Assembly: GCA_963707465.1 (NCBI GenBank)
Contig: CAVPQK010000028.1
Location: forward strand, 33,638 to 97,637
Origin: Bryobacterales bacterium
Lineage (GTDB): Bacteria; Acidobacteriota; Terriglobia; Bryobacterales; Bryobacteraceae
Length of the DNA: 64,000 nt
Direction of reading: 5' to 3'
The position numbers were made by a program, and so were the translations under genes. Below are positions 4,755 through 51,827 of the stretch, piece after piece. A model generated the notes under the pieces. That model worked only from the letters and a program-made list of their open reading frames with translations, did not search any database and was not told where the DNA came from. Every line of letters starts with the position of its first letter. Position 1 is the first letter of the stretch.

Positions 4755-4791
4755 ATCCGTGCTACGCAACCGCGCCGCTGTTCCTGGCAAC

Positions 4792-5247
4792 TCAGAGACA
4801 GCCCGTATCCGGTCGATACATCCCGACTTTCGTCAGGATCTCCGAATCGTAAGCGTCGAAGGACCTCTTGGGGTCATTGCTCCTCCTCAGCAACAGATCC
4901 GGATCGTGGCGCTCCACGGCGGCGAATTCGATCGCCACGTAAACGTATGACTCGCTGCAAAACCACGGCGGGTCCTCTCGCCCGACTTGTACGAGATCGG
5001 CAAAATCGCCCCCGGCCTCGCCGCCGCCCACTTGTCTGAAGCTGGTGTTCCTCGCTCGAAGGTAGCCTTCCACTTCTCTGCGGGTTAACCCCAGCTTCAG
5101 ATCGCGGGAATATGCACGGAGGGCGGATTGATAAGTTGCCTCGCGGTTTCTTCTTGCTTCGACTTTCCGAAGATGCCGGAAACCGGTTGCGAAGAAAATC
5201 GCAACGATCACGACGGTGACTGCGGATAACCACCGGAATCGAATCAA
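4792..5247 (-). CDS. Hypothetical single-pass membrane protein (start uncertain)
   Basis: Only the C-terminal ~150 codons of ORF 4792..5598 look coding. The upstream part overlaps the SRPBCC gene in another frame. An in-frame TTG at 5247..5245 overlaps the SRPBCC stop (TTGA). TM segment WLSAVTVVIVAIFFATGF. Confidence 0.45.
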   Translation of the reverse strand: MIRFRWLSAVTVVIVAIFFATGFRHLRKVEARRNREATYQSALRAYSRDLKLGLTRREVEGYLRARNTSFRQVGGGEAGGDFADLVQVGREDPPWFCSESYVYVAIEFAAVERHDPDLLLRRSNDPKRSFDAYDSEILTKVGMYRPDTGCL

Positions 5248-5714
5248 TTTGCGTTCAGACCTTCCAGCCGCACGTAGCTCGCTTCCATGCCGCGCTCCAT
5301 GCCGGTGGCCAGCATTTGCGCGCGCGTGGCGGCGTCGGGCAGGGTCATGCGCAGGGTCATCAAAGTGCCGTCGCCGTCCGGTTCGAACCTGCATTCCACG
5401 TGGTTGTCCGGGGTGGGGTCGGGTAAAAACATGCGTTCCACATGGACGATCCGGTGGTAGGGCTCCAGTTCCAAGTATTCCCCGGTTACATGGAATCCGG
5501 CGCCCTTGGCGTTGGTCCACTCGTAGCGTATCTTCCCACCGGGCCGCGCCTCGCTGATACAAACGGGCATCGTCCAGCCGTCGGGGCCGAGCAGCCATTT
5601 CTGGATCAGCGCCGGCTCGGTATGGGCGCGGTACACCGCCTCGGGTGGCGCGGCAAAACGCCGGGTCACCACAATATGCGTATCGCCTTCGGTCTTTAGC
5701 GTCATTTTGGTCAT
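5244..5714 (-). CDS. SRPBCC-superfamily protein (AHSA1/Aha1-like)
   Basis: 156-aa ORF. Size, the PPEAVYRAHTEP..WL pattern and the position immediately downstream of an ArsR gene (ATGA overlap at 5711..5714) match the common ArsR-AHSA1 pair. Confidence 0.75.
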   Translation of the reverse strand: MTKMTLKTEGDTHIVVTRRFAAPPEAVYRAHTEPALIQKWLLGPDGWTMPVCISEARPGGKIRYEWTNAKGAGFHVTGEYLELEPYHRIVHVERMFLPDPTPDNHVECRFEPDGDGTLMTLRMTLPDAATRAQMLATGMERGMEASYVRLEGLNAN

Positions 5715-6058
5715 CGCGTTTCCCTTTTATCTTTCCTATGTTTTGGTTTCATGTCTGCCAGAACTTCGTCGAGCCGGTCGTAGTTGCGCGTCAAAGCTTC
5801 GCGCAGCATCGCCAACCACTGATCGATCGGTTCAATGCCGGCCTCCGCCAGCCGGCAAGGGCGCTTGGCGCCCTCGACGCGGCGCACGATCAAGCCCGCG
5901 CCTGCGAGCACCTTGAGGTGCCGCGAGATGGCCGGCTGCGTCATGGCGAACGGTTCCGCCAGCTCCATCACGGTGGCTTCGCCTTTGGCCAGGCGGGCCA
6001 GAATCGCGCGCCGGGTGGGGTCGGACAGGGCGGAGAAGGCGGCATCGAGGGTTGGCAT
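5711..6058 (-). CDS. ArsR/SmtB-family winged-helix transcriptional regulator
   Basis: LSDPTRRAILARLAKGEATVMELAEPFAMTQPAISRHLKVLAGAGLI is a canonical ArsR HTH. Confidence 0.9.
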   Translation of the reverse strand: MPTLDAAFSALSDPTRRAILARLAKGEATVMELAEPFAMTQPAISRHLKVLAGAGLIVRRVEGAKRPCRLAEAGIEPIDQWLAMLREALTRNYDRLDEVLADMKPKHRKDKRETR

Positions 6059-6070
6059 TTGGGACCTCTA

Positions 6071-6109
6071 TATAATCACTATGTTATATAACTTATATGT
6101 TATAGTCAA
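6071..6109 (-). promoter_or_regulatory. Putative promoter/operator of the arsR-SRPBCC operon
   Basis: AT-rich island in a GC-rich genome directly upstream of the arsR start. The minus strand reads TTGACT-N17-TAACAT. A perfect 10-bp palindrome GTTATATAAC (6083..6092) overlaps the spacer/-10. Confidence 0.35.
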
Positions 6110-6246
6110 GGAAAATCTTTCCCGCTGCGCTTATTTCTTGCCATCCCTACCGAACTGGAAGTTCTAAGGACCTAAAGTTCCTCTCCGCGCCCGCCGATCA
6201 CGTTTGCAAGAGGACGTCAACCAGACGTCCAACCAGGAGTTGGATA

Positions 6247-7527
6247 GTGTCGATCAAAGGAAAAATCATCGCGGTAGTAACCGGAACCCTTCTGGTAGGG
6301 GTCGCGGTCATGGGCTATCTGTTCAACCTGAACTACCGCGAGCAGGTGGCGCGCACCTCGGACGTAACCCTGCGCGGGTCCCGCGGCGCATTTGAGAACT
6401 TGCGCAAGGACAGCATGGACATGATGGCCGCGGCGTTGGAGGCCATGGCTTCGAACGAGGAGATCAACGCCGCGCTGGCCCATCGCGACCGCGGACAGTT
6501 GCTGAAGGCGGTCGCCCCGCTGTACCGGAGCTACCACGCGCAGTATGGCATCACGCACTGGTTTTACTGGGAGCCCGAGCCGGCCGGACAAGCCGAAGTC
6601 AAGGGTCTGGTGAACTTTCTGCGCGCGGCCACGCCGAACATCCATGGCGATCTGGTGGAGCGGGTGATGTTGGTCCAGGTCGCCCGGGACAAAGCTCTGG
6701 TGAGCGGGCTCGAGATGGGGATTACCGGCTTCGCCTTCAGGGTGGTGACGCCGGTGTATTGGAGAGGCAAGCTGTGCGGGTACTTCGAAATCGGCAAGGA
6801 TATCGGGAATTTCCTGGTCAGCATGAAACAGCAATCCGGCAATGATTACGGCCTGTTGCTTCTGAAGTCGCGGATGGACGCGGCGAAGTGGCGGTCGAGC
6901 CGCAAAAACTGGGGGCAACGGGACAATTGGGACGACATGAAAGACCTGCTGCTGGCCAAGAACACATACTCCGACGAGTCGATCCTCCGGTACGACGGCA
7001 GCCTCGACGGGATACCGGAGAGCGGCCAGGATCTCGGCTTGGTCGAACGCCACGCTGCCATCTACAGCCGGGGGGTGTTTCCGCTTTACGCGGCCGGCGG
7101 CGCCAAGGTCGGCGCGGTCTTCGTATTAAGCGACATCACCGCGCTGTACCAATCCGCGCATCAGACGATGGTGCGGGGGGTCCTCGCGATCATGCTGCTG
7201 ATGGCCATTACCGGAGTGGTGATGTGCGTGCTCTTCAACCGGCTCATTGTGGCCCGTCTGGAGCGCCTGATTCGCATCGCGACGCGGGTGGTCGGGGGCG
7301 AATTCGATTTGGAAGTGGTGCAATCGGCTCATGATGAGGTGGGGAAGTTCGAGGAACTTTTTGAGCGATTCCGGAGGGTGTTCGTGGATCTGGTCGGTGG
7401 CATGGAAGAGCAGCCTGCGTCTGCCGCGCAACCGGAGACCGCCGGGCTTCGGAGCGGGGAGGAAAGTAACCGTGGGGCAACTATACGACAGCCGCTGCAA
7501 GCTGGACCAGGTCATTCGCGAGCGTAA
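6247..7527 (+). CDS. Membrane sensor: periplasmic Cache-like domain + HAMP, no recognisable output domain
   Basis: GTG start. TM1 IIAVVTGTLLVGVAVMGYLF, ~280-aa extracytoplasmic region, TM2 GVLAIMLLMAITGVVMCVLF, followed by a HAMP-like segment (RLERLIRIATRVVGGEFDLEV..HDEVGKFEELF). The last ~20 codons have poor third-position GC. Confidence 0.7.
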   Translation: MSIKGKIIAVVTGTLLVGVAVMGYLFNLNYREQVARTSDVTLRGSRGAFENLRKDSMDMMAAALEAMASNEEINAALAHRDRGQLLKAVAPLYRSYHAQYGITHWFYWEPEPAGQAEVKGLVNFLRAATPNIHGDLVERVMLVQVARDKALVSGLEMGITGFAFRVVTPVYWRGKLCGYFEIGKDIGNFLVSMKQQSGNDYGLLLLKSRMDAAKWRSSRKNWGQRDNWDDMKDLLLAKNTYSDESILRYDGSLDGIPESGQDLGLVERHAAIYSRGVFPLYAAGGAKVGAVFVLSDITALYQSAHQTMVRGVLAIMLLMAITGVVMCVLFNRLIVARLERLIRIATRVVGGEFDLEVVQSAHDEVGKFEELFERFRRVFVDLVGGMEEQPASAAQPETAGLRSGEESNRGATIRQPLQAGPGHSRA

Positions 7528-7672
7528 GCTAGACCAGATCAACGTCTACGGGGAAATAGGTCTGAGAGCCGGGTTCCTGGTTTCGCTCATCAGGGCGACC
7601 ACCCCTGACGACGACGCCAAGGCCCAGAAGTTCCGGAAAGCGGCCCAGGAAGTCCTCAAGGTATCGCTCTAG
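7472..7672 (+). CDS. Small hypothetical protein (66 aa), or the displaced C-terminus of the upstream sensor
   Basis: GTG at 7472 preceded by GGGGAGGAAAG. Third-position GC is high throughout this frame, unlike the overlapping tail of ORF 6247..7527. No recognisable motif. Confidence 0.35.
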   Translation: MGQLYDSRCKLDQVIRERKLDQINVYGEIGLRAGFLVSLIRATTPDDDAKAQKFRKAAQEVLKVSL

Positions 7673-7818
7673 GCGATCGCCCGCAGGATCTGGTATCGGT
7701 TGAGTGCGCGATTCCGGACCACGGGCAGTCCCGCACGCTGATGCTGCTGCTTCGCAAAGCGCACCTGGGCGAGGTCAGCGTCACCGAAGAGCGGGGCTTA
7801 AGCCCGCCCCCCACTTCC

Positions 7819-9378
7819 TCATTCCGGCAGCGCCCAGGCGTACAGCACACCCTGTACGCCCTCCACCACGTATTGCCGGCCATCCAACTCGTACGTCATC
7901 GGCGAACTGACCATCGAACCGCCCGCGTTCACGTGCCATAGCGTCTTGCCCGTGGCCGGATCGAGCACCAGCAGGTTGCCTTGCGAATCGCCGGTGAACA
8001 GCACGTTGCCGGCGGTGGTCAGGATTCCCGCGGTGCTCTCGCCCGGACCCAACTCGTGGTTCCAGCGAATCTCGCCGGTGCGGTAATCGATGGCGCGCAG
8101 CGTGGACTCTTCATAGATATCGTGATCGCGCCCCGCCCAGCCCTCCGGCTTGCCCGTGGCGGTGTAATAAAAAATGCTGTACACGCGCCGCGCCACCACG
8201 TAGAACAAGCCCAAAGGCTGATCGAAACTGGGCGACATCCAATTGGTGGCGCCGTCGGAGCCGGGATACACCAGCCGTCCATCGGCGTGCGGCTCTTTTT
8301 CTTTGAGTGCCACCGGGCGGCCGCGCGCGTCGATGCCTGAAGTCCAGTTTGTGTCGATGAACGGCGCGGTCAGCAAATGCTCTCCGTTGGTCCGGTCGAG
8401 CACGAAGAAGAATCCGTTGCGGCTAGCCTGCGCCAGCAGCTTGCGCGGCTTGCCGGCGAAATCCGCGTCGAACAGCACCGGCGTCTCCACGGCGTCCCAA
8501 TCGTGCGTGTCGTGCGGCGAAGGCTGAAAGGACCATTTGAGCTTGCCCGTATCGGGATCCAGCGCCACGATGGAGCAGGTGTACAGGTTGTCGCCCGGGC
8601 GCGCATCGCCGGCCAGCACCGGATTCGGATTGCCCGTGCCCCAGTAGAGCAGATTGAGCGCGGGATCGTAAGTGCCCGTCATCCACGTCATGCCGCCGCC
8701 ATGGGTGATGGCGTCGCTATTGGCGGGCCAAGTCTCGGAGCCCGCCTCGCCGGGCCGCGGTTCCGTGTACCAGCGCCATTGCTGCTTGCCGGTCTCCGGG
8801 TCGACGGATTCCAGAAATCCGGGGATATCCGTGGCGTCTCCCGAGACGCCCGCAATTACGTGGTTGCCCACCACCAGCGGCGCCATGGTGGCGAAGTACC
8901 CGAGTTGCACGTCGGCCAGTACGATGTCCCACCGCACGCGCCCATCCTTAGCGTCCAGGCTGAGCAAATGCGCGTCCGGCGTTTCGAAGAACAGCCAGTT
9001 GCCCCACATGGCCAGGCCGCGATGGCCGATGTGGTCGCCGTCGGACTTCTTGTAGTGATAGTGCCAGACCTGCCGGCCGGTGCGCGCGTCGACCGCCCAC
9101 ACCTGCTCCGGCACGGTGAAGTACAGGATGCCGTTCACCTCCAGCGGTGTCGACTTAATGGCCGCCGAGTTGGCCTGGAAGGCCCAGGCCAGCGTCAACC
9201 GCTTGACGTTCGAAGCGTCGATCTGCTTGAGCGGGCTGTACCGGCGGCCGGTATAGTCGCCATTGTATGTCGGCCAGTTATCCGTGGGCGGTTTCAGCAG
9301 CGCGGCGGGATCCAACGCTTGCGCCAGCGTCGCGGCCGCGCTTGCGGCAATGCCGCCGCACAACGCCGCGCACCTCAT
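7819..9378 (-). CDS. PQQ-dependent (quinoprotein) dehydrogenase, 8-bladed beta-propeller
   Basis: ORF 7819..9522. Start preferred at ATG 9378 (MRCAALCGGIAASAAATLAQA signal), 8 nt after the cytochrome c stop. NWPTYNGDYTGRRYSPL, repeated W-docking motifs and YWGTGNPNP match the quinoprotein dehydrogenase family. Confidence 0.85.
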   Translation of the reverse strand: MRCAALCGGIAASAAATLAQALDPAALLKPPTDNWPTYNGDYTGRRYSPLKQIDASNVKRLTLAWAFQANSAAIKSTPLEVNGILYFTVPEQVWAVDARTGRQVWHYHYKKSDGDHIGHRGLAMWGNWLFFETPDAHLLSLDAKDGRVRWDIVLADVQLGYFATMAPLVVGNHVIAGVSGDATDIPGFLESVDPETGKQQWRWYTEPRPGEAGSETWPANSDAITHGGGMTWMTGTYDPALNLLYWGTGNPNPVLAGDARPGDNLYTCSIVALDPDTGKLKWSFQPSPHDTHDWDAVETPVLFDADFAGKPRKLLAQASRNGFFFVLDRTNGEHLLTAPFIDTNWTSGIDARGRPVALKEKEPHADGRLVYPGSDGATNWMSPSFDQPLGLFYVVARRVYSIFYYTATGKPEGWAGRDHDIYEESTLRAIDYRTGEIRWNHELGPGESTAGILTTAGNVLFTGDSQGNLLVLDPATGKTLWHVNAGGSMVSSPMTYELDGRQYVVEGVQGVLYAWALPE

Positions 9379-41853: not shown

Positions 41854-42597
41854 CTAGAGCGCCAGTTCTTTGCGATACATCATGTCTTGGACGTCGAATT
41901 TGGCCTTGATCTCCAGCTTGCCCAGTTGCGTCGTGAAGCTCACTTCCTTGTCCTGAGCCGTCAACTGCAGCACGTCGTGCGAGAACCCGAATAACAACAC
42001 GTTGGTCTCGAACCCGGCCGATCCCTGCTGCACCGTCCCGGGCTGCGCGGGAGACTTGCCCTTCGGCTCCAGGTAAGTCAGGTTCTTGATGCGGTCGAGC
42101 ACGTCCTGGCTGAGTCCCTTCGCGTCGGAATCGCCGTCATCGGAGTGCTGGCGATCTCCAGTAACAATCGGGATGCCGCTCACGCTAATGACGTAAGAGT
42201 TGGCCAAACCCTCCGGAATCGGAGATTTCAATGCTTCCTGAATCGGTTTGGCGCTGACCCAGCGCACCACGCCGTGGTACTGGATGGGGGCCGGACCACC
42301 CATGCCGCCGCCGCGCCGGCCGCGGCCCATCCCGCCACCGCCCATCCCCCCACCACCGGGGTATCCGACCCCACTGTTGTTGCCGGTGCTGCCCGATTGG
42401 CGCAGCGAGACGCTGACCGGTTTTGCCCACGGCGACTTCGTCTTCATCTTTTCAATTTCATCGCTCGACCACTGCGATGGATCTTTCTTATTCCAGAATT
42501 CCGAATCTCCGGCGTACAGGCGAAACCAGGACTGCGCGCCGGCTCCCGAAGCGAGCATCAGGAGTCCGCGGCGGGTGAAACGGCGTGTTTGAAGCAT
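41854..42597 (-). CDS. Hypothetical secreted protein with Gly/Met-rich low-complexity insert
   Basis: 247 aa. Tat-like RRFTRRGLLMLASGAGA N-terminus. GYPGGGGMGGGGMGRGRRGGGMGG tract. Confidence 0.6.
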   Translation of the reverse strand: MLQTRRFTRRGLLMLASGAGAQSWFRLYAGDSEFWNKKDPSQWSSDEIEKMKTKSPWAKPVSVSLRQSGSTGNNSGVGYPGGGGMGGGGMGRGRRGGGMGGPAPIQYHGVVRWVSAKPIQEALKSPIPEGLANSYVISVSGIPIVTGDRQHSDDGDSDAKGLSQDVLDRIKNLTYLEPKGKSPAQPGTVQQGSAGFETNVLLFGFSHDVLQLTAQDKEVSFTTQLGKLEIKAKFDVQDMMYRKELAL

Positions 42598-42908
42598 AGT
42601 GGTGGTGTCCTAACCTCCGTGAGACGTTATCTGAGGTCCCAAAGGTTGCAGTATTAACGCGCACGTTTCGTTTTTTTTGAGGCCCGATCGCCAAACTGGT
42701 CGACCATGCGGGCGCGCGGACGGTTATCCATCGATATCGCCGGCCGCTAACTGCCGGTGGGCACGGCGCCCCTAGGCTGTACCTTGACCCGTACGCGTGG
42801 TATCCGCTGGGGCGAAGCCCTGTGCGTACAATTTCAGACATGACAACCTTCGTCCACATGCCGAGCGGTAGAAGCATCACGAAGCTTGTTCCAAGGAGGA
42901 AATCGACG

Positions 42909-43097
42909 ATGACGAGTTCTTTGCGCAACCTGTTGACAGACGATCGAGGCCAGGACCTGATCGAATATACGCTGCTGATGGCCTTTGTGGCGCTTGCGTC
43001 CGCTACGCTGTTTGCCGCCGCCGGCACCAGCGTCAGCCTGATCTGGAGCACAACCAACTCTCAGTTGACCGCCGCGGCAGCCAGCGCGGCCAGCTAG
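42909..43097 (+). CDS. flp: Flp/Fap-family type IVb pilin (62 aa)
   Basis: ATG 42909 preceded by AGGAGG. DDRGQDLIEYTLLMAFVALASATLF is the Flp G/x-x-x-x-E-Y processing and hydrophobic motif. Confidence 0.75.
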   Translation: MTSSLRNLLTDDRGQDLIEYTLLMAFVALASATLFAAAGTSVSLIWSTTNSQLTAAAASAAS

Positions 43098-43199
43098 AGG
43101 CTACACACTGCAACGCTTACTCGCCGATCTGCGCCCTGCGCGACGACGTCACCCCGATCACTGGTAAGCTATCGGGGTGAAGGTCTACGAGCGAGAGTC

Positions 43200-46034
43200 A
43201 TGACCAGAATTGCCGACCTGCTGGCCCGCGATTTTTCGAGACCTATCGAAGAGTTCGTCAAGGTCGACAACCACGATCCGGATACTGTCTTCACCGAACT
43301 GACCGAATACATTGCGACGGATCGTATCAAAGCCGAGTACGAGCGCCTGTTTTCCGCGATGGCGGCCGCTTCGAAATCGTCCAGCGAAAACATTGGAGTC
43401 TGGATTTCCGGATTCTTCGGCTCAGGCAAATCCTCCTTCGCGAAGAACCTCGGGTATGTTCTGGCGAACCGCGAAGTACATGGCGCCCCCGCCAGTTCGC
43501 TTTTCCTGAAGCAGGTGGAATCCAAGCGGGTCACCGAGTGCGTGGAGTTCCTCAATGCAGCGGTCCCGTACGAGACCTTCATGTTCGACGTTCAGGTGGA
43601 GCTGCCGGTCGAAATCAAGCCGGAGCAGCTCATTGAAGCCATGTACCGGGTCCTGCTGCGCGATCTTGATTATGCGGAAGACCCCGATATCGCGGAGCTG
43701 GAGATTGAACTCGAAAAAGAGGGCAAGCTGGCGGCGTTTCAGGATCTCTGTCAGGCGGAATACCAGGAAGAGTGGAGAAAGCTCCGCAAAAGCAGCCGGA
43801 AACTTGAAGGCACCAGCGCCTTGCTTCACCGGCTCGATCCCCGAAGTTACCCCGCGACTGACACGTGGTTGAACATGGTTACGGCCCGGCCTTCAAGAAC
43901 CTTGAGTGTCAAAGACCTGGTTGACAGGTCATTCGATCTATGCAACATCCGCCGTCACGGGAAGGCCTTCGCTTTCGTCCTGGACGAAATGGGCCAATTC
44001 GGCGAACGCCTCGGAAACCTGCTCGAAATCGTCGAACGGTTTGGCAGGGAAAGCCGTGAACGGTCGAACGCCGGGAACATCCCGGGGCCCGTGTGGATCA
44101 TCGTTACGGCCCGGCAAGATCTGGAAGAGATCGACAAGTACCTGGTAGCCAACTGCATCGACCTGCCCAAACCACAGGACCGTTTCAGGCACCAGATCGA
44201 CCTATCCTCGGCCGGCATCCGCGAGGTTGTCACCCGCCGCGTGTTGCGCAAGAAGGAGAGCCAGGAGATTATCCTCAGGAAGCTGTTCCGCGAACGCGGT
44301 GCGTCGCTCAATCAGAATGTCAGGTTGGAAAAGAGCTCCCGCCACACGGAGTTCGACGAAGAGCAGTTTGTCCACTCTTATCCTTACCTTCCGCATTTGA
44401 TCGACCTCTCGGTCGACATCATGGCGGGCATGCACGTACAACCCAATGCGTCAAAGTACGTCGACAGCAGCAACCGTTCCATCGTCAAGCAGTCTTTCGA
44501 AATGCTCACGTCGGACCTGACCCGGCTCGCCGATGAGCCCGTCTCCGTCCTCGTGAGCATCGACAAGATCTATGAGCTGGTGGAAGGAAATACTCCCTGG
44601 GAGAAGCGGAAGGACATACTCGACATTCGCCAACGCTACGACGACGACAAAGACTACCCTGGGATGGCATCGCGAGTGGCGAAGGCCATATGCCTCATGG
44701 AGTTTGCCCAGACGGACCTGCCGCGCACGACGAAGAACATCGCCGCATTGCTGGTCCAGCGTGTCACGGAGGCCCCACCCGCACTTGCGGTTGCGGGGAT
44801 CCTCGATCACCTGAAAGGGGCGCAGTATGTCCACGAGACCAAGGCCGGATGGAAGCTCTATGATTTCGATGAACTGCGTCGCACGGCGGCCGCCCTGGGA
44901 TGGCTGGGCAGATGGGTGGGAGGAGTCACTCCCCGGAAGCCGGGGTGGCAGAGCGGACTGATCCAATGGGTGAAGAAGCTGCTGGCTCGCTCGTTGAATT
45001 GGTATACGTGGCCATTGCGCCAATTCCATGACTCAGTAAGTCAATCGCTCCAGGAAACAATCGGCGCCCTTGACCACCTATCGATGAACATGGTTGCCCT
45101 GGACCGCCATTCCATGAACATGGTGGCCCACGAGCGCAATCCGACCGATAGATTCGCGCCTCAGTTGTTGGACCACCTTTCCATGAATAGAGTCGCGCTG
45201 GACCGCCTGTCGATGGACATGATTGCCCTTGAAGCGCGGCTGGCGCGGGTGGAGAAGACCAGGGCCAGGATGGAAACGGACTGGGACCAGGAGAAAACGG
45301 CTTACATTATCGGACTCTTTGGCACCGGACGCCGGTATATCAATGAACTGATGCTCGAGCACATTGGAGAGAGGGCGAAATATTTTAGGGATACGATCGC
45401 CTTGCATCCAGGTCCGACACCGATGATCTACAGCGGCCATGCCACGGTGAGGCATCTGTCTCGCGCGCAAGAGCCGCCGGCTGTAATGGGCCGTATCTTA
45501 GAAGCGGTCAGCTCCGGATTCGCCACTGTGATTTTCGTCTATCGTCACCCTCTCGATTCGTTGTTGACGAATTGGATTTGGTGGCGGACATACATTCGCG
45601 AGAACGTCTTGATTTCTGGAATCTCGCAGGTTTATCAGAACACGGACGATCTATGTGCCGAGTTGGAGCGGAACTTTCTCGACTTCAAAGCCTTTGCCGA
45701 AGGCGACCCCGATTTTTTTGCGGGCATGCCAGGCCCGCCATTTCTGTCTTTTAGGCAGTTTGTCGAGGAAACCGATCTTCATTTCCAAGCCGCCCCGCTC
45801 ACGTTGCGCCTGGAGGACTTCATGATCGATCCTTGCCAAGAGTTTTCCAAGATCGCCGAACTCATGTCAGTCCCTCTCGAGCGGAGCCGCTTACGTATTG
45901 TCCCCCCGAAAACCAAGCCCTATGGCTATTTGGCTGTTAAAGACAAAGTCCCTCAATTCAGAGACTTTATTGACGGGCTGAATGCGGAGACAAAAGGGCG
46001 GATTGAGAAGCTCGGCTATGATATGACTGTGTAA
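43200..46034 (+). CDS. Fusion protein: BrxC/PglY-like P-loop ATPase region + decapeptide-repeat linker + sulfotransferase-like C-terminal domain
   Basis: 944 aa. The N-terminus (IADLLARDFSRPIEEFVKVD...TEYIATDRI...GVWISGFFGSGKSSFAKNLGYVL) matches my recollection of the BREX BrxC N-terminus and Walker A. Walker B-like AFAFVLDEMGQF. C-terminal ~250 aa carry IIGLFGTGRRY (5'-PSB-like loop) and VYRHPLDSLLT (R-x-P-x-D-x-x-x-S/T, 3'-PB-like), as in PAPS-dependent sulfotransferases. Confidence 0.7.
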   Translation: MTRIADLLARDFSRPIEEFVKVDNHDPDTVFTELTEYIATDRIKAEYERLFSAMAAASKSSSENIGVWISGFFGSGKSSFAKNLGYVLANREVHGAPASSLFLKQVESKRVTECVEFLNAAVPYETFMFDVQVELPVEIKPEQLIEAMYRVLLRDLDYAEDPDIAELEIELEKEGKLAAFQDLCQAEYQEEWRKLRKSSRKLEGTSALLHRLDPRSYPATDTWLNMVTARPSRTLSVKDLVDRSFDLCNIRRHGKAFAFVLDEMGQFGERLGNLLEIVERFGRESRERSNAGNIPGPVWIIVTARQDLEEIDKYLVANCIDLPKPQDRFRHQIDLSSAGIREVVTRRVLRKKESQEIILRKLFRERGASLNQNVRLEKSSRHTEFDEEQFVHSYPYLPHLIDLSVDIMAGMHVQPNASKYVDSSNRSIVKQSFEMLTSDLTRLADEPVSVLVSIDKIYELVEGNTPWEKRKDILDIRQRYDDDKDYPGMASRVAKAICLMEFAQTDLPRTTKNIAALLVQRVTEAPPALAVAGILDHLKGAQYVHETKAGWKLYDFDELRRTAAALGWLGRWVGGVTPRKPGWQSGLIQWVKKLLARSLNWYTWPLRQFHDSVSQSLQETIGALDHLSMNMVALDRHSMNMVAHERNPTDRFAPQLLDHLSMNRVALDRLSMDMIALEARLARVEKTRARMETDWDQEKTAYIIGLFGTGRRYINELMLEHIGERAKYFRDTIALHPGPTPMIYSGHATVRHLSRAQEPPAVMGRILEAVSSGFATVIFVYRHPLDSLLTNWIWWRTYIRENVLISGISQVYQNTDDLCAELERNFLDFKAFAEGDPDFFAGMPGPPFLSFRQFVEETDLHFQAAPLTLRLEDFMIDPCQEFSKIAELMSVPLERSRLRIVPPKTKPYGYLAVKDKVPQFRDFIDGLNAETKGRIEKLGYDMTV
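45069..45227 (+). repeat. In-frame 30-nt (decapeptide) repeats inside the BrxC-like fusion gene
   Basis: LDHLSMNMVA (45069..45098), LDRHSMNMVA (45099..45128), 13-aa spacer, LDHLSMNRVA (45168..45197), LDRLSMDMIA (45198..45227). Visible at the nucleotide level (ctKgaccRcc..tcSatgRa..). Confidence 0.9.
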
Positions 46035-46038
46035 GCGC

Positions 46039-46806
46039 CTATGCGCGCCGCGCCGCCCACGCGCGAGTCGTATAGATTGTCTCGATGGCCGTCAGACCGG
46101 CAATGCGCTTCTCGGCGAAATCCAGGAAGTCGCGGAAGAGTTCCGCACCTAATTGCACCTGGAGATCGTTTACCGAGCGCCACGCGCCGATATACTGCTC
46201 GGGAGTTTGGCGCACGCTGTGTCTGCCTTCGAGGTACAGAACGTCGGTGAATTGCGGCTTGGCGCTCAACAACTCGGTCAGCCGCTCGGTAATGCCGGAG
46301 CGGCCCGACGATACACGGCGGACGTCAGGCTTGAGCCGCGCGATCTGCGCCTCGATTTCGACCAGCACCGGGTTGGCTTCGATGAAGCGCGGATTCCACA
46401 GGGCCACAAATGCCCCGCCCGGCCGCAGGATGCGATGGAACTCGGCGCACGCTTTGTCGAAATCGGCCCAGTGAAGCGACGAAGCCATGCTCACCAGATC
46501 GGTTGAGCCGTCCGGCAATCCGGTGGCTTCCGCCGAACCTTTGCGCCAAACAATATCCGTCCCGCGCGACGCCGCGATGCCTTGCTCGCGCATGTCGTCA
46601 TTAGGTTCCACGGCGACGACTGAATGCAAGCCGCGGGCCGCGAGCATGCGCGTCCAAATGCCCGTGCCGGCGCCGACGTCGGCGGCATCGAGGCTGGCGG
46701 CATCGCGCCCGGCATAGCTCAGGATCGCGTTCGCGACCTGCGGCGCATATCCCGGCCGGAACTTAGCGTAGTCCCCTGCCAACCCTGTGAAATCTCCGTG
46801 TTTCAT
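46039..46806 (-). CDS. Class I SAM-dependent methyltransferase
   Basis: ORF 46039..46932. Start at ATG 46806 (MKHGDFTGLAGDYAKFRPGY), 13 nt after the upstream stop. Motif I DVGAGTGIWT. Post-I VVAVEPNDDM. Confidence 0.85.
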   Translation of the reverse strand: MKHGDFTGLAGDYAKFRPGYAPQVANAILSYAGRDAASLDAADVGAGTGIWTRMLAARGLHSVVAVEPNDDMREQGIAASRGTDIVWRKGSAEATGLPDGSTDLVSMASSLHWADFDKACAEFHRILRPGGAFVALWNPRFIEANPVLVEIEAQIARLKPDVRRVSSGRSGITERLTELLSAKPQFTDVLYLEGRHSVRQTPEQYIGAWRSVNDLQVQLGAELFRDFLDFAEKRIAGLTAIETIYTTRAWAARRA

Positions 46807-46819
46807 GGCTGTTTCATCG

Positions 46820-47596
46820 CTACGCCGGCTCACTACCGGATAGCGCGTCCTCGAGCTGGAGTTCTCCGTCCCTGACCATATCCTGGTACAGCGCCACGTC
46901 TTCCGGATTATCGATTTCGCCCCATTGGCCATCGGTGGCGAAGGTGCTGATGGGGGCCAGCTTTCCGGCCAGCAGCCGGCGCAGCAATCCGGTCACATCA
47001 AGGCGATCGCGGATCGCCGCATCCAGTGTGCTGAGTAGCGCCTCGACAGCACTCCATGCCGACGGCGTGAATTTGAAGAGGCCCATATATTGCCCCTCGA
47101 TATCCTCGATCCGCGCCGTCTTGCCGCCGATCTCCAGCAATTGGCCCGCGGCATCGACCCCGAAGGTTTCGGCGTCGGCCAAGGGATCGGCAAAACGCCG
47201 GGTCCACAGGCGGCGCCAGGCCCGGTCGTAACTGATCACCAACTGGCCCGCCGCAGCGGCCAGGCCGCGCACCAACTCGCCGCGGTAGAAGATGTCGCCA
47301 TAGCTGACGATGACCGGTCCCTCCCGCAGCCAGGTCGCGGCCGCGGCGAGCGACATCACCATATTGGTTTCGGCCCATCGTTCGTTGGCGAAATAGGAGA
47401 CTCCGGGAAAATCGACCATCTCGGCGCGATAACCGCGAACGATCCCGATCTCGTCCGCCCCGCCCCGCCTGAGTGCCGCGATCTGGCGCTCGATCAACGG
47501 CTTGCCTGCGAGCTCGACCAGGCACTTCGGGCGATCGGCGCCCAGATGCCCCATGCGGCTGCCGCGGCCGGCGGCGAGAATAACGGCGCGCATCAT
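46820..47596 (-). CDS. Nucleotidyltransferase (NTP_transf_3/LicC-like; candidate CTP:phosphoglutamine cytidylyltransferase analogue)
   Basis: ORF 46820..48043 is a long false extension. The true start ATG 47596 overlaps the upstream stop (ATGA). MMRAVILAAGRGSRMG..PKCLVELAGKPLIERQI is the sugar-/phospho-nucleotidyltransferase signature. Confidence 0.8.
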   Translation of the reverse strand: MMRAVILAAGRGSRMGHLGADRPKCLVELAGKPLIERQIAALRRGGADEIGIVRGYRAEMVDFPGVSYFANERWAETNMVMSLAAAATWLREGPVIVSYGDIFYRGELVRGLAAAAGQLVISYDRAWRRLWTRRFADPLADAETFGVDAAGQLLEIGGKTARIEDIEGQYMGLFKFTPSAWSAVEALLSTLDAAIRDRLDVTGLLRRLLAGKLAPISTFATDGQWGEIDNPEDVALYQDMVRDGELQLEDALSGSEPA

Positions 47597-48195
47597 GCGA
47601 GCCCGAAAACCTGGCGGAACAGCGCCACGTCGGCAGGCGAGAACTGGGCGGACCGCTCCGGGTGCCACATGATACCAATTATAGGCTCGGCCGAATGGCG
47701 AATCGCTTTGACTACGCCATCGTCGGCGACCGCCCAGACTTCCAGCGGCGGCCGCGAGTCGAAGGCGGCAAAGCGATGATAGCTGTTGACCTCTTTCCGC
47801 TCGCCGTCGATTCGGATCGCCTGACATGGCGCCACATGGCCTTCGACGCGACGTAACGGAATATCGAAACGCTGCTGAACCACTTGCATGCCGCGGCACA
47901 CGCCCAGCACCGGCAGCCCGCGCTGCTGGACCCAATCGAGCAACGCATTTTCGACGGCATCGCGTTCGGGGGCATCGCCGCCCAACGCCGCCAGATCGTT
48001 GCCGCCGGTCAACACCAACCCGCCGATGCCGGCCCCTTCGCACAAAGCCAGAGCCACGTCGGTGACGTTGGGGATCGGCACCGGAAGCAGTCCGCAGGCC
48101 GCCAGGAACTTAGTCCACGCCTGATCCAGGCAATCGCGGCGCTCGCCATAGCCTGGAACCACCCATACCCGCTGGGTGACAGCGACGGCTCTCAT
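47593..48195 (-). CDS. Class I glutamine-amidotransferase-like (peptidase C26) hydrolase
   Basis: Start ATG 48195 overlaps the upstream stop (ATGA). Nucleophile elbow LGVCRGMQ and GIMWHPE His-Glu context. Confidence 0.8.
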   Translation of the reverse strand: MRAVAVTQRVWVVPGYGERRDCLDQAWTKFLAACGLLPVPIPNVTDVALALCEGAGIGGLVLTGGNDLAALGGDAPERDAVENALLDWVQQRGLPVLGVCRGMQVVQQRFDIPLRRVEGHVAPCQAIRIDGERKEVNSYHRFAAFDSRPPLEVWAVADDGVVKAIRHSAEPIIGIMWHPERSAQFSPADVALFRQVFGLA

Positions 48196-51100
48196 GCGAT
48201 GACCAGGACCTTCTGGTTGGTGCAATCCAGGCAAAGCGTTCGCGCCTTCTGCCAGCGCAGGAACAGGGCTTCGCCGGCGCCGATGACAGCGGGAATGCCC
48301 AATTCGCCGGCGCGGATCGCCATGTGTGAATTGGCGCCGCCGAACTGGGTGACGAATCCGCTGATTTCGCGAGTGAAGATCCAGTCGAAGCCTGGATCCG
48401 CGCTGGGCACGAAGAGAATCTTTCCGGCGAAGGTCTCCGGCGGGTCACCGATCGAGGCGACCGGCGCGGTGACGCTCTTTCGCGTAATGAAATTCGGCTG
48501 GCTCGGGGGAAGGTGAAATGCGAACACTTCGGCGGGCGACGCGATGACCGGCGGAAGCACGAGATTGCGTGTCAGCGCGTGACGCTCCCTGCCGCGCGCG
48601 ACACTCTCCAGCAAAGCCTCGCGCACCGAACCGCTTTCGCTATAGAGCGTTTGGATCACGCCGTAATCCAGAAATGCACAGTCCTCTACCGAGAGACCGT
48701 GATCTGCACCCAACTGCCCGATCAGCGACAGAGCGTGGCTCAGGCTTCGCGTGAACACGAACTTCGCATATTCGCGGCCCTCGATGCCGGCCTTGATGAA
48801 CTCGATGAAACTCAAGACATCGATGTCGAGCTCATGTTCCTTGAGCAGATGCTCGATGCGGCGCAACTGCTCGATCGAAAGCGCGAAGCGCGGGGGCGCG
48901 GGCGGCGCCGGCCGGGCACTCAACCAGTCGAAATAGAGATTGGGCGCCTCGTCGTAGCGCGGCGACAGAATGTCGTAGGTCCCCGGCCGGAGGTGGCCGT
49001 AGCGCGCCAGGAAGTCGGGCTTTGGAAGCTGCGCGAAATCCCGCCCGATGCGCGATCCGACGGTATCGACACTGGCCATGAACGCCGCGACCTCTTCGGC
49101 ATTGAGCACGCCCACCTCGATGAAGGACTCGAGCATTTGAACCGCTATAAAGCCGGCCCGCGCGAGACCGGCGAACGGCAGCGTGCCGTACCGCTTGCAG
49201 TCCTCGATCAACCAGTAGATGCGGCTGATCTTGTCGATCTCCGCGTTGCAGATTAACGGGAGCCGCTCGGCCAGCAGGTCGATTTTCGCGCGGTCGCGCC
49301 GCCACAGCGCGGTTTCGCCATGCATGATGCGATTGGTAAGGCGCCGTAAGGCGCGCGAAAGGTCGGCTAGGTCCTGCGGAGAAAATCCGTATTCGGCGAG
49401 CCGGCCCATGCGCTTCGGCAAATCGAGGGCGTAGCAGGAGAAGACGATTTCAAATTCGACCTTATCGTGGAGATGCGGCTCCGACAGGAGGCGATCGATG
49501 TAGTAGTTGACCAGACGCGCGGCGAGATCGTCTGGCAGGTCGCGTGGTACGAAGGAATTGAAGCTGACACGCACATCGATATAAGGCAGTCCGTGAAAGC
49601 TGACCAACAGCGGAAAACTGCGCAGATTCTGGTAGCCGTAATTGTCCCGCTGATAGGCCCAGATCGCGTCGGTGATGAGTTCGCAATAAAGCGACAACGC
49701 CAGAGGCCCAGGCCGCACCCCGATAATCTCGGCCGGGTTCCAGTCCGGCATGACGCCGAAGATCGCGCGGCTGCCGTGCAGGTAGGGATGCGGGCGGCTG
49801 AGCAGCTCGACCTTTCGGGCAACATCGGCCAGCGCGGTGTCGACTTGCGTGTCGGCTGCCCGCCCATGGCGGTCGACGGCGAGAGGGCGCACTTGCAAAA
49901 GGTAGAGCTGCCCGTCATCGCCGAGGGCGAATTCCACGTCTATGGCATCACACCCGAGCGTGGTTTCGAGCTCGCGGACCAGAGCGACGACCGGCGCGAG
50001 CGGCGGTGGGCAGGCATCCGGCCGCGATCGGAGGCACAGAAAGGTCTTGAGATTGTCGCCGGCGCCGGCGGTCACGCGATCGGTCAAGCCGGAATGGTCG
50101 TCGTAATTAATAACGAAGTAGGGACCGCCGCTGGGACTGCGCGAGAAGACCACCCCGGCCATCGCCACACGCTCGAGCATGGGCTGTACAAAGACTTGAT
50201 CGTCGTCTCTTCCGGTGGTGCCTGCATCGTGGGTGAACGAGGCAATCACCCGGTCGATTGCCTGTGCCACGGCGGCGCTGCCGGCAACGCCGAGAACGGA
50301 ATCGTACCTGCCGGCCTGGGAGTTGCGGGCCGCGCCATCCTCGCCCCGTGCACTGCTCCGCACGATGACGCGATCTGAACCCCAGGGAGCCGCCGCGACG
50401 GCGGCCAGCACCCGAGCGGCGTCCGCGCGCCAATCGCCAACCGAGAACCGCACCTGGGGCAGGACGCGCCCGCCGCGCAGAAGGGGCGCCAGCAGTTCCA
50501 GAGATTCCGCCTTCGTTTGGAAGGCGACCGTCCGCACCGGCTGCGCCGCACCGGCGCCATTGCGCCTGGCGCCTAACGCCAGGATGCGATCAACCGCCGC
50601 CGAAACGTCGAGTGACCCATAATTGTCGAGCACCAGGTCGGGCGCTTCGGGCGCCTCCGCCGGCACGTCCAGGCCGACCACGTCGCACGTCTCGCCGCGC
50701 CGCGCCGCCGCGTAGATGCCCTTGGTATCCCGGCGCTCCAGCTCTTCCATCGGGACCCGCAGGTAGATCTCGCGATAACCGGGGATGTTCTCGCGGTTCC
50801 AACGCTGCACCTCGTGAAACAGCGAGATGGTGGCGCAGACCACATCGGCGCCCTGCTCTGCCAGCAACCGGCACAGCCGCGCATTCCGCATCGCCGATCG
50901 CCGCCGATGGTCTGCGCTGTGGTCAAGATCTTCGGCGATCACAGCGCGGAGCGTGTCGCCATCGAGGAAGGTTGCCGCTCGACCGGAGGCTCGCAGCCGG
51001 CTCCACAACTCTCGCCCCAAGGTGGTCTTGCCGGCGCCGGATAACCCGGTAATCCAGTAGACGCGCCCCGGCGTGGCGTGCTGTTCGGCTTCAGGCTGGC

Positions 51101-51218
51101 CTCCCGCCTCTGGTGTGTTGGTCAGCACAGAAGTCTTCAAGCGTTCATGGAGCTGCCGGTCAGCGGCAATCCGGTCCCGGGGTAAATGTGTCAATTGTGT
51201 TAACGATGATGAGCGCAC
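48192..51218 (-). CDS. Bifunctional protein: CysC-like (adenylylsulfate-kinase-family) kinase fused to PPDK/PEP-synthase-like ATP-grasp + phosphohistidine (PEP-utilizer) enzyme
   Basis: N-terminal VYWITGLSGAGKTTLGREL..FLDGDTLR (APS-kinase family). Middle VIVRSSARGEDGAARNSQAGRYDSVLGV (PPDK_N). C-terminal ISGFVTQFGGANSHMAIRAGELGIPAVIG (swivelling phospho-His domain). The exact start is uncertain. Confidence 0.8.
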   Translation of the reverse strand: MRSSSLTQLTHLPRDRIAADRQLHERLKTSVLTNTPEAGGQPEAEQHATPGRVYWITGLSGAGKTTLGRELWSRLRASGRAATFLDGDTLRAVIAEDLDHSADHRRRSAMRNARLCRLLAEQGADVVCATISLFHEVQRWNRENIPGYREIYLRVPMEELERRDTKGIYAAARRGETCDVVGLDVPAEAPEAPDLVLDNYGSLDVSAAVDRILALGARRNGAGAAQPVRTVAFQTKAESLELLAPLLRGGRVLPQVRFSVGDWRADAARVLAAVAAAPWGSDRVIVRSSARGEDGAARNSQAGRYDSVLGVAGSAAVAQAIDRVIASFTHDAGTTGRDDDQVFVQPMLERVAMAGVVFSRSPSGGPYFVINYDDHSGLTDRVTAGAGDNLKTFLCLRSRPDACPPPLAPVVALVRELETTLGCDAIDVEFALGDDGQLYLLQVRPLAVDRHGRAADTQVDTALADVARKVELLSRPHPYLHGSRAIFGVMPDWNPAEIIGVRPGPLALSLYCELITDAIWAYQRDNYGYQNLRSFPLLVSFHGLPYIDVRVSFNSFVPRDLPDDLAARLVNYYIDRLLSEPHLHDKVEFEIVFSCYALDLPKRMGRLAEYGFSPQDLADLSRALRRLTNRIMHGETALWRRDRAKIDLLAERLPLICNAEIDKISRIYWLIEDCKRYGTLPFAGLARAGFIAVQMLESFIEVGVLNAEEVAAFMASVDTVGSRIGRDFAQLPKPDFLARYGHLRPGTYDILSPRYDEAPNLYFDWLSARPAPPAPPRFALSIEQLRRIEHLLKEHELDIDVLSFIEFIKAGIEGREYAKFVFTRSLSHALSLIGQLGADHGLSVEDCAFLDYGVIQTLYSESGSVREALLESVARGRERHALTRNLVLPPVIASPAEVFAFHLPPSQPNFITRKSVTAPVASIGDPPETFAGKILFVPSADPGFDWIFTREISGFVTQFGGANSHMAIRAGELGIPAVIGAGEALFLRWQKARTLCLDCTNQKVLVIA

Positions 51219-51272: not shown

Positions 51273-51827
51273 TCACTTCGCCGCCGGGTCGCCGTGCTCG
51301 ATGTAGTTCTTCAAACGCAACAACTGCTCCTTCAGGACGGAATCGACCGGCGCAGCCCAGGTATTCAAACCCGCGGGCAAATACCCAGTGACCGCATAGG
51401 TGAATTCGAGCTTGGTGTCGCCCGCTCCGGCGTCGAGTTGAAACTTCATGCTGCCGGCGGCGGCGATCGATTGCAGCGGCCCCAGCGCCCCAGTGAAGAC
51501 GATCGACTTGCCGGGCATCAGCGAGATCACTTCCATATGGCGGACCACCCCGGAGTTGGGCAGTTTCTCGCAGAAGCATCCCATGGCCTTCTCTTCAATA
51601 CTCAGATTGTGGGCGTCGTGTGTGTAGGTGTGCGCCGGGTCCCACCAATCGCCGACGTTATGCACGATCCGCCGGTAGACCTCCTCGGGGGCAGCCCGGA
51701 TGTTCATCGTGGTCTTTATGGTGAAGCCGTTGCTGGCCGAGTCGGCTACTTCCGCGCGTACCGCGCCGGCGCCAAGTGCCAGGGCCATCGGGAAAACGAA
51801 TGCGAGCCTTTTCATAAAATGCCTCAA
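51273..51827 (-). CDS. SRPBCC-fold protein with signal peptide
   Basis: 184 aa. MKRLAFVFPMALALGAGAVRA signal. RAAPEEVYRRIVHNVGDWW fits the START/AHSA1-like pattern. Lies 54 nt upstream of the kinase-fusion gene on the same strand. Confidence 0.6.
   Translation of the reverse strand: MRHFMKRLAFVFPMALALGAGAVRAEVADSASNGFTIKTTMNIRAAPEEVYRRIVHNVGDWWDPAHTYTHDAHNLSIEEKAMGCFCEKLPNSGVVRHMEVISLMPGKSIVFTGALGPLQSIAAAGSMKFQLDAGAGDTKLEFTYAVTGYLPAGLNTWAAPVDSVLKEQLLRLKNYIEHGDPAAK

Follow-up and report, generated by a model that had tools for sequence, protein, structure and literature searches.

Analysis of a 64,000-nucleotide stretch of DNA from a Bryobacterales bacterium (contig CAVPQK010000028.1; the whole stretch is called the window below) revealed a minus-strand operon of four genes, G1–G4, whose products appear to belong to the enzyme families that make the phosphoramidate donor for O-methyl phosphoramidate (MeOPN) in Campylobacter jejuni, together with a convergent plus-strand gene whose C-terminal domain (family A1) has a probable sulfotransferase fold. 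The four genes and the convergent gene probably work together as one module for the synthesis and use of an activated phosphoramidate donor, along the lines of sulfation with 3'-phosphoadenosine 5'-phosphosulfate (PAPS). In the proposed pathway, G3 would couple phosphoglutamine with cytidine triphosphate (CTP) to give cytidine diphosphate (CDP)-L-glutamine, G2, a Cys-His-Glu hydrolase, would free glutamate to leave cytidine diphosphoramidate, and the CysC-like domain of G1 would phosphorylate the 3'-OH; the product, 3'-phospho-CDP-amidate, would resemble PAPS in structure. The sulfotransferase-fold domain (45237..46034) would move the phosphoramidate onto an acceptor hydroxyl, most likely on a cell-surface glycan, with release of cytidine 3',5'-bisphosphate (pCp), which CysQ, where present, would clear, and G4 would O-methylate the transferred group to methyl phosphoramidate.

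The substrates of the donor steps are taken from the biochemistry of C. jejuni (Cj1415–Cj1418), and the transfer, the methylation and the acceptor are our own proposals; in the data, the scheme draws on domain and family identities, catalytic motifs, conservation of the gene set (the cassette) across phyla, and genomic coupling with sulfotransferase-fold proteins. By analogy with C. jejuni, donor synthesis is likely to proceed as proposed, through 3'-phospho-CDP-amidate. The assignment of the sulfotransferase-fold protein as the phosphoramidate transferase is evenly balanced in our judgement.

Enzyme families of the four-gene operon

The original prediction had described a four-gene minus-strand operon with two ATGA overlaps and a 13-nt gap. 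Re-derivation of the coordinates and junctions gave this same arrangement, and the motifs cited then (GVCRGMQ, WHPE and ILAAGRGSRMG) were each located in the translations. Dozens of independent genomes have the same genes in the same order, so chance juxtaposition does not explain the arrangement. The operon contains the following features.

48192..51218, minus: G1, open reading frame (ORF) of 1008 aa counted from GTG
50577..51071, minus: CysC-like kinase domain of G1 (residues 50–214), passing PRK05541; P-loop GLSGAGKTT at 51021..51047
48198..50534, minus: glutamine-kinase-like domain of G1 (residues 229–1007), with ATP-grasp, central and C-terminal phospho-His swivel domains
49728..49745, minus: motif DWNPAE in the glutamine-kinase-like domain
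48312..48332, minus: motif NSHMAIR in the swivel domain, with the catalytic His (GGANSHMAIR, His at ~48320)
47593..48195, minus: G2, 200 aa; its ATG start and the G1 stop share ATGA
47884..47904, minus: G2 motif GVCRGMQ (Cys) of the class-I amidotransferase fold
47653..47670, minus: G2 motif MWHPER (His/Glu) of the class-I amidotransferase fold
46820..47596, minus: G3, 258 aa, in ATGA overlap with G2; TAG stop
~47552..47578, minus: G3 motif ILAAGRGSRMG, GxGxR signature
46039..46806, minus: G4, 255 aa, after a 13-nt gap behind the G3 TAG
46660..46677, minus: G4 S-adenosylmethionine (SAM) motif I, VGAGTG

Pfam analysis of G1 revealed an APS_kinase domain (residues 52–198), a PPDK_N domain (281–385) and a PEP-utilizers domain (932–1001). 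Compared with the curated hidden Markov models (HMMs) of NCBIfam, the kinase domain passed the NF004041/PRK05541 subfamily (174.2 bits; cut-off 127), which we take to include Cj1415, but remained under the cut-off of TIGR00455 apsK (115.4 bits; cut-off 138.7) and under those of PRK00889 and PRK03846. The same combination, PRK05541 passed and apsK failed, was found in four cassette-linked kinases of distant phyla (L076, L073, L057 and L085). These model scores, which set the domain apart from genuine adenylyl-sulfate (APS) kinases, bear out the earlier claim of a CysC-like kinase, and the domain is a putative cytidine diphosphoramidate 3'-kinase of the Cj1415 type.

The start codon of G1 is ambiguous (GTG 51218, TTG 51194, TTG 51140 or GTG 51128). 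IMG places it at TTG 51140 (982 aa), homologues are usually ~973 aa long, and TTG 51140 or GTG 51128 is the likely start. The NCBI/ENA product (P0002) has 899 aa, in which the kinase P-loop would be lost; this looks like a start-site annotation error.

The PPDK-like part of G1 matched the equivalog model NF004508/PRK05849 at 922.5 bits (cut-off 501) over model positions 7–788 of 789. An IMG protein 100% identical to G1 (P0001, 982 aa) is named 'glutamine kinase', and homologues at 83–100% identity carry the same label. GGxNSHM was invariant in 25 diverse glutamine-kinase homologues, among which the DWNPAE and NSHM motifs were invariant or nearly so, and Pfam detected no PEP-utilizers_C domain (the phosphoenolpyruvate (PEP)/pyruvate TIM-barrel) in G1. 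The PPDK-like part had been assigned to the glutamine-kinase family, and the end-to-end match and the IMG name agree with this; its prediction as an L-glutamine kinase of the Cj1418 type (EC 2.7.3.13; residues 229–1007) is supported. It is very improbable that the enzyme acts on another substrate, in the manner of a PEP synthase, a rifampicin phosphotransferase or a prodigiosin ligase, with the operon making an unrelated nucleotide-activated compound. PGAP calls the homologues just 'PEP-utilizing enzyme', and there are weak partial matches to the PpsA, Rph and PigC models; these reached only 40–59 bits, however, against cut-offs of 600–1350 and against the 922 bits of NF004508, and were confined to the common ATP-grasp or His domains. 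The enzyme also invariably co-occurs with a hydrolase of the GATase fold and a nucleotidyltransferase, which speaks against such a substrate.

G2 was assigned to Peptidase_C26/GATase by Pfam, and its triad motifs, GVCRGMQ and MWHPER, were kept in at least 90% of 69 cassette homologues. Its top NCBIfam model was NF045546 (gamma-glutamyl-CDP-amidate hydrolase), matched over the full length with E 1.7e-32 and a lead of 23 orders of magnitude over the runner-up; the same model was the top match for three distant G2 homologues. The score of 113.1 bits lies below the cut-off of 250, so that equivalog membership is not established, and the G2 homologues of Firmicutes cassettes likewise reach just 107–128 bits on this model. 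Of the predicted GATase-like gamma-glutamyl-CDP-amidate hydrolase, the fold, the triad and the top model therefore stand, and the score falls short; G2 may be such a hydrolase, of the Cj1417 type.

G3 is a MobA/LicC-like nucleotidyltransferase (Pfam NTP_transf_3). ILAAGrGsR of G3, as well as VGAGTG of G4, was kept among the cassette homologues (69–75 compared). IMG gives a protein 100% identical to G3 (P0422) the name 'L-glutamine-phosphate cytidylyltransferase', and many near homologues are called 'choline kinase' in IMG and 'phosphocholine cytidylyltransferase family' at NCBI. The family and the motif support the claimed nucleotidyltransferase, and with the name of the identical protein, G3 is a candidate CTP:phosphoglutamine cytidylyltransferase of the Cj1416 type. 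G4 proved to be a class-I SAM methyltransferase, as had been claimed of the fourth gene (Methyltransf_11/25; VGAGTG), and may function in O-methylation of the phosphoramidate. Sequence searches of the PDB returned no solved homologue of Cj1415–1418 closer than generic APS kinases, amidotransferases of the PuuD/Lin1909 type and LicC, whose entry 1jyk was the nearest to G3.

The convergent gene and sulfotransferases linked to the cassette

The 944-aa ORF at 43200..46034 on the plus strand converges with G4, with the two stop codons 4 nt apart. It is a fifth conserved partner, which the original prediction had overlooked, and contains the following features.

45237..46034, plus: sulfotransferase-fold domain, ~270 residues at the C-terminus of the 944-aa ORF; candidate phosphoramidate transferase
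45312..45338, plus: A1 motif GLFGTGRRY in the sulfotransferase-fold domain
45543..45575, plus: A1 motif RHPLDSLLTNW in the sulfotransferase-fold domain
45804..45821, plus: A1 motif LRLEDF in the sulfotransferase-fold domain
43200..45185, plus: BrxC-like P-loop ATPase half and repeat-containing linker, the N-terminal 660 aa of the 944-aa ORF; GFFGSGKS at 43410..43433

The A1 family has ~980 members, mostly in Acidobacteriota and all annotated 'hypothetical'; the window contains one copy. A stand-alone 285-aa protein at the same position in another acidobacterial contig (L001) shares 63% identity with the C-terminal domain. Locus counts here and below refer to the best 80 loci of at least 593 species genomes, 40 of them closely related and 39 distant. 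A1 lies beside the cassette in 30 of the 40 closely related loci, directly past the methyltransferase gene and usually on the opposite strand, with its start 2.1–2.4 kb beyond the end of the glutamine-kinase gene. Two more contigs, picked via the A1 protein itself, show the same convergent arrangement. Clustering of all flanking ORFs yielded no other transferase candidate conserved with the cassette.

Two AlphaFold (AF2) models of A1 were built from independent alignments. For the model of the window domain (predicted local distance difference test (pLDDT) 70.9), the top 50 PDB matches were all sulfotransferases, with E from 1.2e-3; the model of the homologue P0143 (pLDDT 83.6; predicted TM-score (pTM) 0.78) gave 45 matches at E<=1e-3, all to PAPS sulfotransferases, with 3ckl_A at the top (4.9e-6). 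Both GLFGTGR and RHPxDSLLT were invariant in 31 and 63 members of the family, which also shares an invariant C-terminal motif, LRLEDF..DP. GLFGTGR follows a predicted core beta-strand and precedes a helix, and RHPxDSLLT follows the next core strand; in our own reading, they would correspond to the strand-loop-helix loop for the 5'-phosphosulfate and to the RxPxDxxxS/T motif for the 3'-phosphate in sulfotransferases. The models thus point to a PAPS-sulfotransferase fold for A1. Because the TM-scores are modest and no profile match is significant, this fold is probable rather than proven, with fold comparison as the one line of support for it.

A paralogue of A1 (64% identical) was found away from any cassette at 8001..8870 of L004, in a polysaccharide cluster with DegT, GT4/GT2 glycosyltransferases, a GHMP kinase, an NTP transferase, an Asn-synthase-like protein and Wzy_C.

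Distant cassettes without A1 carry other sulfotransferase-type proteins. Of the 39 distant loci, 20 encode Pfam Sulfotransfer_3 proteins; most of these lie no more than 3 kb from the glutamine-kinase gene, and L034, L047 and L076 have them as tandem pairs. The cassette cluster of Azospirillum lipoferum 4B plasmid p6 (L086) contains two Sulfotransfer_1 proteins. In addition, a gene of the inositol-monophosphatase family was found in 11 loci. The member in Chitinilyticum litopenaei (L065 12869..13696) passes the CysQ equivalog TIGR01331 (232.2 vs 228.8 bits); here and in Chitinibacter tainanensis (L052 12902..13717), the CysQ gene lies between the hydrolase and nucleotidyltransferase genes with overlapping ends, that is, translationally coupled. 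CysQ within the cassette fits the removal of a 3',5'-bisphosphate by-product. The PAPS economy consists of a CysC-family kinase, a sulfotransferase fold and CysQ, and the wiring of these three parts to the phosphoramidate branch here suggests that 3'-phospho-CDP-amidate is used in a PAPS-like manner. The joint proposal that A1 and the cassette-linked Sulfotransfer_3/1 proteins are the missing phosphoramidyl transferases, and that MeOPN-like decoration is widespread in soil, marine and gut bacteria, is tentative, and we give it somewhat less than an even chance.

The Azospirillum cluster (L086) also encodes a GDP-fucose synthase, a glycosyltransferase, a DUF1566 protein, a C1q-domain protein and, at 5653..8193, an 846-aa 'adenylyl-sulfate kinase' with a CysC-like domain at its C-terminus only (52% identical to the window domain) and a 640-aa N-terminal region free of Pfam matches. 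The idea of a sulfotransferase-like N-terminus in this protein was dropped, as neither Pfam nor the A1 HMM nor the fam15 HMM supported it.

In all 40 close loci, the CysC-like kinase and the glutamine kinase form one protein; in 30 of the 39 distant ones, the former has a separate adjoining gene. This fusion bears on the alternative that the partners carry out ordinary PAPS-dependent sulfation and the CysC-like domain acts, solely or additionally, as an APS kinase, with the CDP-amidate branch separate and its true transferase elsewhere. We regard this as unlikely, because the kinase domain and its four relatives score under the cut-off of apsK and over that of PRK05541, the CysQ gene is coupled in translation to the GATase and nucleotidyltransferase genes on its two sides, and the cassette has no other conserved transferase candidate, even though Sulfotransfer_3, Sulfotransfer_1 and true CysQ lie beside many cassettes, the kinase domain still matches Pfam APS_kinase (E 3e-33), and cysDN and an SLC13 permease adjoin the cassette on a plasmid of Vibrio alfacsensis, pVa1. 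A tblastn search of the window with Vibrio CysD and CysN (E<=1e-3) also gave no match, which speaks against the same alternative; no separate search was aimed at Sat-type sulfurylase or CysH. The original prediction had argued from the absence of ATP sulfurylase and PAPS reductase genes, and the part concerning CysD/CysN in the window is upheld, with Sat and CysH outside the search. Ordinary sulfate assimilation was accordingly ranked low, on the apsK failure, the fusion and the lack of CysD/CysN in the window.

The Vibrio plasmid locus (L087, pVa1) carries cysD, cysN and the SLC13 permease gene at 3644..7838, divergent from a 1002-aa fusion of kinase and glutamine kinase, and adjoins a PEP-CTERM/XrtA exopolysaccharide glycosyltransferase cluster. 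It is the one context with genuine sulfate activation beside the cassette.

The reading of the locus as a module that makes and uses a phosphoramidate donor has to be set against a number of observations, to which the low score of G2 belongs. For G3, no NCBIfam model of the proposed function appeared, only generic nucleotidyltransferase matches. NF004508 itself is labelled only 'hypothetical protein', and its identity with the Cj1418 family is our assumption, joined by the naming in IMG; the comparison with Cj1415–Cj1418 ran through curated HMMs alone. A1 had no match in Pfam at E<=10 or in NCBIfam, its profile matched PDB entries only at E>1, its comparison with the cassette-linked Sulfotransfer_3 group by hhalign gave a probability of 2%, and its TM-scores to sulfotransferases are modest (0.35–0.45). 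The fusion to a BrxC-like ATPase is not accounted for by the module. Sulfotransferase, CysC and CysQ are the toolkit of ordinary sulfation too, and the V. alfacsensis plasmid places the cassette beside cysDN and a sulfate-type (SLC13) permease. Finally, the window contains no capsule or kps locus around the operon and no identifiable candidate acceptor.

The BrxC-like half matched NF033441 BREX_BrxC with E 1e-107 over model positions 2–541 of 1173, at 361.8 bits and so below the cut-off of 400. No other gene of bacteriophage exclusion (BREX) systems, such as PglX, PglZ or BrxL, was found near it; the neighbours are MacB-like, GT28 and unannotated. The fusion of BrxC-like and sulfotransferase-fold parts was also seen in L014, L016, L020, L026, L041 and L042 (Bryobacterales or Acidobacteriaceae; 57–67% identity), and this recurrence in six other loci shows that the fusion is real. 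The linker between the two parts contains a 30-bp tandem repeat (45066..45129; 2.1 copies, 82% match) encoding LDHLSMN(M/R)VALDR-like peptides.

Distribution and genomic setting of the cassette

An exhaustive HMMER search of 1.84 billion cluster representatives with the glutamine kinase retrieved 5,331 clusters at E<=1e-3, of which 1,595 stayed at E<=1e-30; stand-alone forms of ~780 aa and N-terminally extended forms of ~1,000 aa were both represented in the top 150. A two-motif scan of one genome per GTDB species gave at least 599 stretches, of which 593 were confirmed. Among the best 80 loci, the glutamine-kinase gene was accompanied by the nucleotidyltransferase in 73, by the GATase-type hydrolase in 68 and by the methyltransferase in 66. 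The original prediction had placed the pathway in Acidobacteriota outside a capsule locus; the non-capsule context stands, and the cassette is no acidobacterial oddity, occurring in at least 593 species genomes of many phyla.

Besides Acidobacteriota, the best 80 loci include metagenome-assembled genomes (MAGs) labelled Planctomycetota, Binatota, Gemmatimonadota, Eremiobacterota, Actinomycetota and Proteobacteria, at 76–88% identity to the acidobacterial cassette. These cassettes (L006, L008, L017, L022, L024, L028, L029, L032, L034, L035, L048 and L056) come from MAGs labelled Isosphaeraceae, Binataceae, Gemmatimonadales, Solirubrobacteraceae, Eremiobacterota, Alpha-/Gammaproteobacteria and Actinomycetota. 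Such identity across phyla reflects either recent horizontal transfer among peat and soil bacteria or mis-binned MAGs. The cassettes of L001 and L088 have transposase genes at their flanks. Cultured carriers among the 80 include Azospirillum, Chitinibacter tainanensis, Chitinilyticum litopenaei, Pseudomonas taiwanensis, Paenibacillus kobensis, Cohnella boryungensis, Clostridium guangxiense and Anaerotruncus colihominis; none of the best 80 loci is from Campylobacter. Homologues on plasmids of Azospirillum, V. alfacsensis, Cupriavidus and Agrobacterium bear the PGAP name 'PEP-utilizing enzyme'.

A scan of metagenomes for the DWNPAE pattern in AT-rich codons yielded 120 low-GC loci, apparently from mostly marine assemblies, 119 of which were true glutamine-kinase homologues; these loci carry the triad of glutamine kinase, hydrolase and nucleotidyltransferase, and none of the 120 could be recognised as Campylobacter. 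Many loci of very low GC (0.20–0.30) among L090–L209 have the triad with no detectable CysC-like kinase in the flanks available, which hints that some lineages stop at CDP-amidate or hold the kinase elsewhere.

The genomic surroundings bear on the acceptor. WcbI was found in L088 and DegT aminotransferases in 9 loci, and the glycan contexts of L004, L088 and the Azospirillum and Vibrio plasmids favour a surface polysaccharide, unproven, as the acceptor. The donor pathway might instead operate as proposed with the phosphoramidate, methylated or not, placed on something other than a capsule glycan, such as a natural product, a lipid head group, a protein or a phage-defence link. The lack of a capsule or kps locus around the operon in the window would suit this, as would the sulfotransferase-fold/BrxC-like ATPase fusion in 7 loci, the non-glycan settings of some A1 paralogues (e.g. 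L005) and the existence of further P-N natural products (PMC6429109). Nevertheless, we consider it less probable than a glycan acceptor, and unlikely overall, since the informative contexts are those of glycans: glycosyltransferases, DegT and Wzy_C in L004, WcbI in L088, DegT in the 9 loci, and plasmid clusters of Azospirillum and Vibrio with glycosyltransferases, fucose synthase and PEP-CTERM exopolysaccharide genes.

In the window, the operon neighbours a non-conserved secreted protein, a Vps62-like protein, ClpB, a MacB-type permease and a GT28 glycosyltransferase. The secreted protein upstream (184 aa; 51273..51827) does not recur with the cassette and was therefore dropped as a member of the system. 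Scanning the surroundings of the operon for promoters, terminators and Rfam families returned no signal beyond background. The G+C content is 0.57–0.59 across 42000..46000, compared with 0.63–0.65 in the flanks; this low stretch spans the 944-aa ORF and two small unannotated ORFs before it (41854..42597 and 42488..43057), and may be a more recent acquisition. The window proteins that were compared are 100% identical to those of one IMG metagenome contig (97.6 kb), and the named close homologues come from MAGs of Terriglobales, Ca. Sulfotelmatobacter, Korobacteraceae, Acidiferrales and Bryobacteraceae, which makes the original description as Acidobacteriota-like a reasonable one.

Comparison with known systems

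In C. jejuni, Cj1418, Cj1416, Cj1417 and Cj1415 convert Gln, ATP and CTP to CDP-phosphoramidate 3'-phosphate (PMC11800397). The glutamine kinase has been called 'C. jejuni-specific' in a review (PMC9561416), MeOPN sugars have been reported from Campylobacter only (PMC6429109), and the transfer step had not been reconstituted as of 2025 (PMC12409886). We found no literature linking the MeOPN transferases Cj1421/Cj1422 to the sulfotransferase fold. A similar, MeOPN-like gene set was already predicted in Borg elements of Methanoperedens in a 2024 preprint (bioRxiv 10.1101/2024.11.05.622173).

With the donor cassette in at least 593 species genomes and ~1,600 clusters, surface P-N chemistry would be far commoner than assumed, including in peat and soil Acidobacteriota. 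If the transferase proposal is true, MeOPN-like decoration, described as Campylobacter-specific, would be a surface chemistry common to many bacteria of soil, sea and gut. The pairing with a sulfotransferase fold and CysQ offers a testable candidate for the uncharacterised phosphoramidate transfer and a mechanistic analogy to PAPS. The original prediction had called the pathway, as far as known, uncharacterised in this setting. Annotation pipelines already recognise the cassette in part (IMG 'glutamine kinase' and 'L-glutamine-phosphate cytidylyltransferase'); under the RefSeq names 'PEP-utilizing enzyme', 'adenylyl-sulfate kinase' and 'phosphocholine cytidylyltransferase family', it is mostly invisible in standard annotation.

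The locus shares with the MeOPN donor pathway of C. jejuni NCTC 11168 the same four enzyme families in one operon and a SAM methyltransferase, and the chemistry is presumed to be the same. In contrast to C. jejuni, the kinase and glutamine kinase are fused here (~975 aa), the gene order is different, the genome belongs to a soil acidobacterium of high GC, a kps or capsule locus is lacking, one methyltransferase stands in place of Cj1419 and Cj1420, and the neighbour is a sulfotransferase-fold protein that has no Pfam family. With PAPS sulfation (CysC, sulfotransferases and CysQ), the module has in common a CysC-family kinase that would lead to a 3'-phosphorylated nucleoside-diphospho donor, a transferase of probable sulfotransferase fold, and CysQ in some cassettes; it differs in the lack of CysD/CysN in the window and in a kinase that fails the apsK equivalog, and phosphoramidate would replace sulfate as the transferred group and cytidine would replace adenosine. 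The Borg set likewise has a glutamine kinase, cytidylyltransferase and hydrolase, predicted from structure or annotation, outside Campylobacter in surface-glycan regions, whereas no fusion to a CysC-like kinase or sulfotransferase-fold partner was reported for it, and the preprint does not have the breadth of distribution seen here. The donor pathway itself is thus of a known kind, which IMG already labels; the novelty lies in the fusion of the two enzymes, in a setting away from capsule loci in a very different phylum, in how widely the cassette occurs, and in the conserved partners with a sulfotransferase fold and, in places, CysQ.

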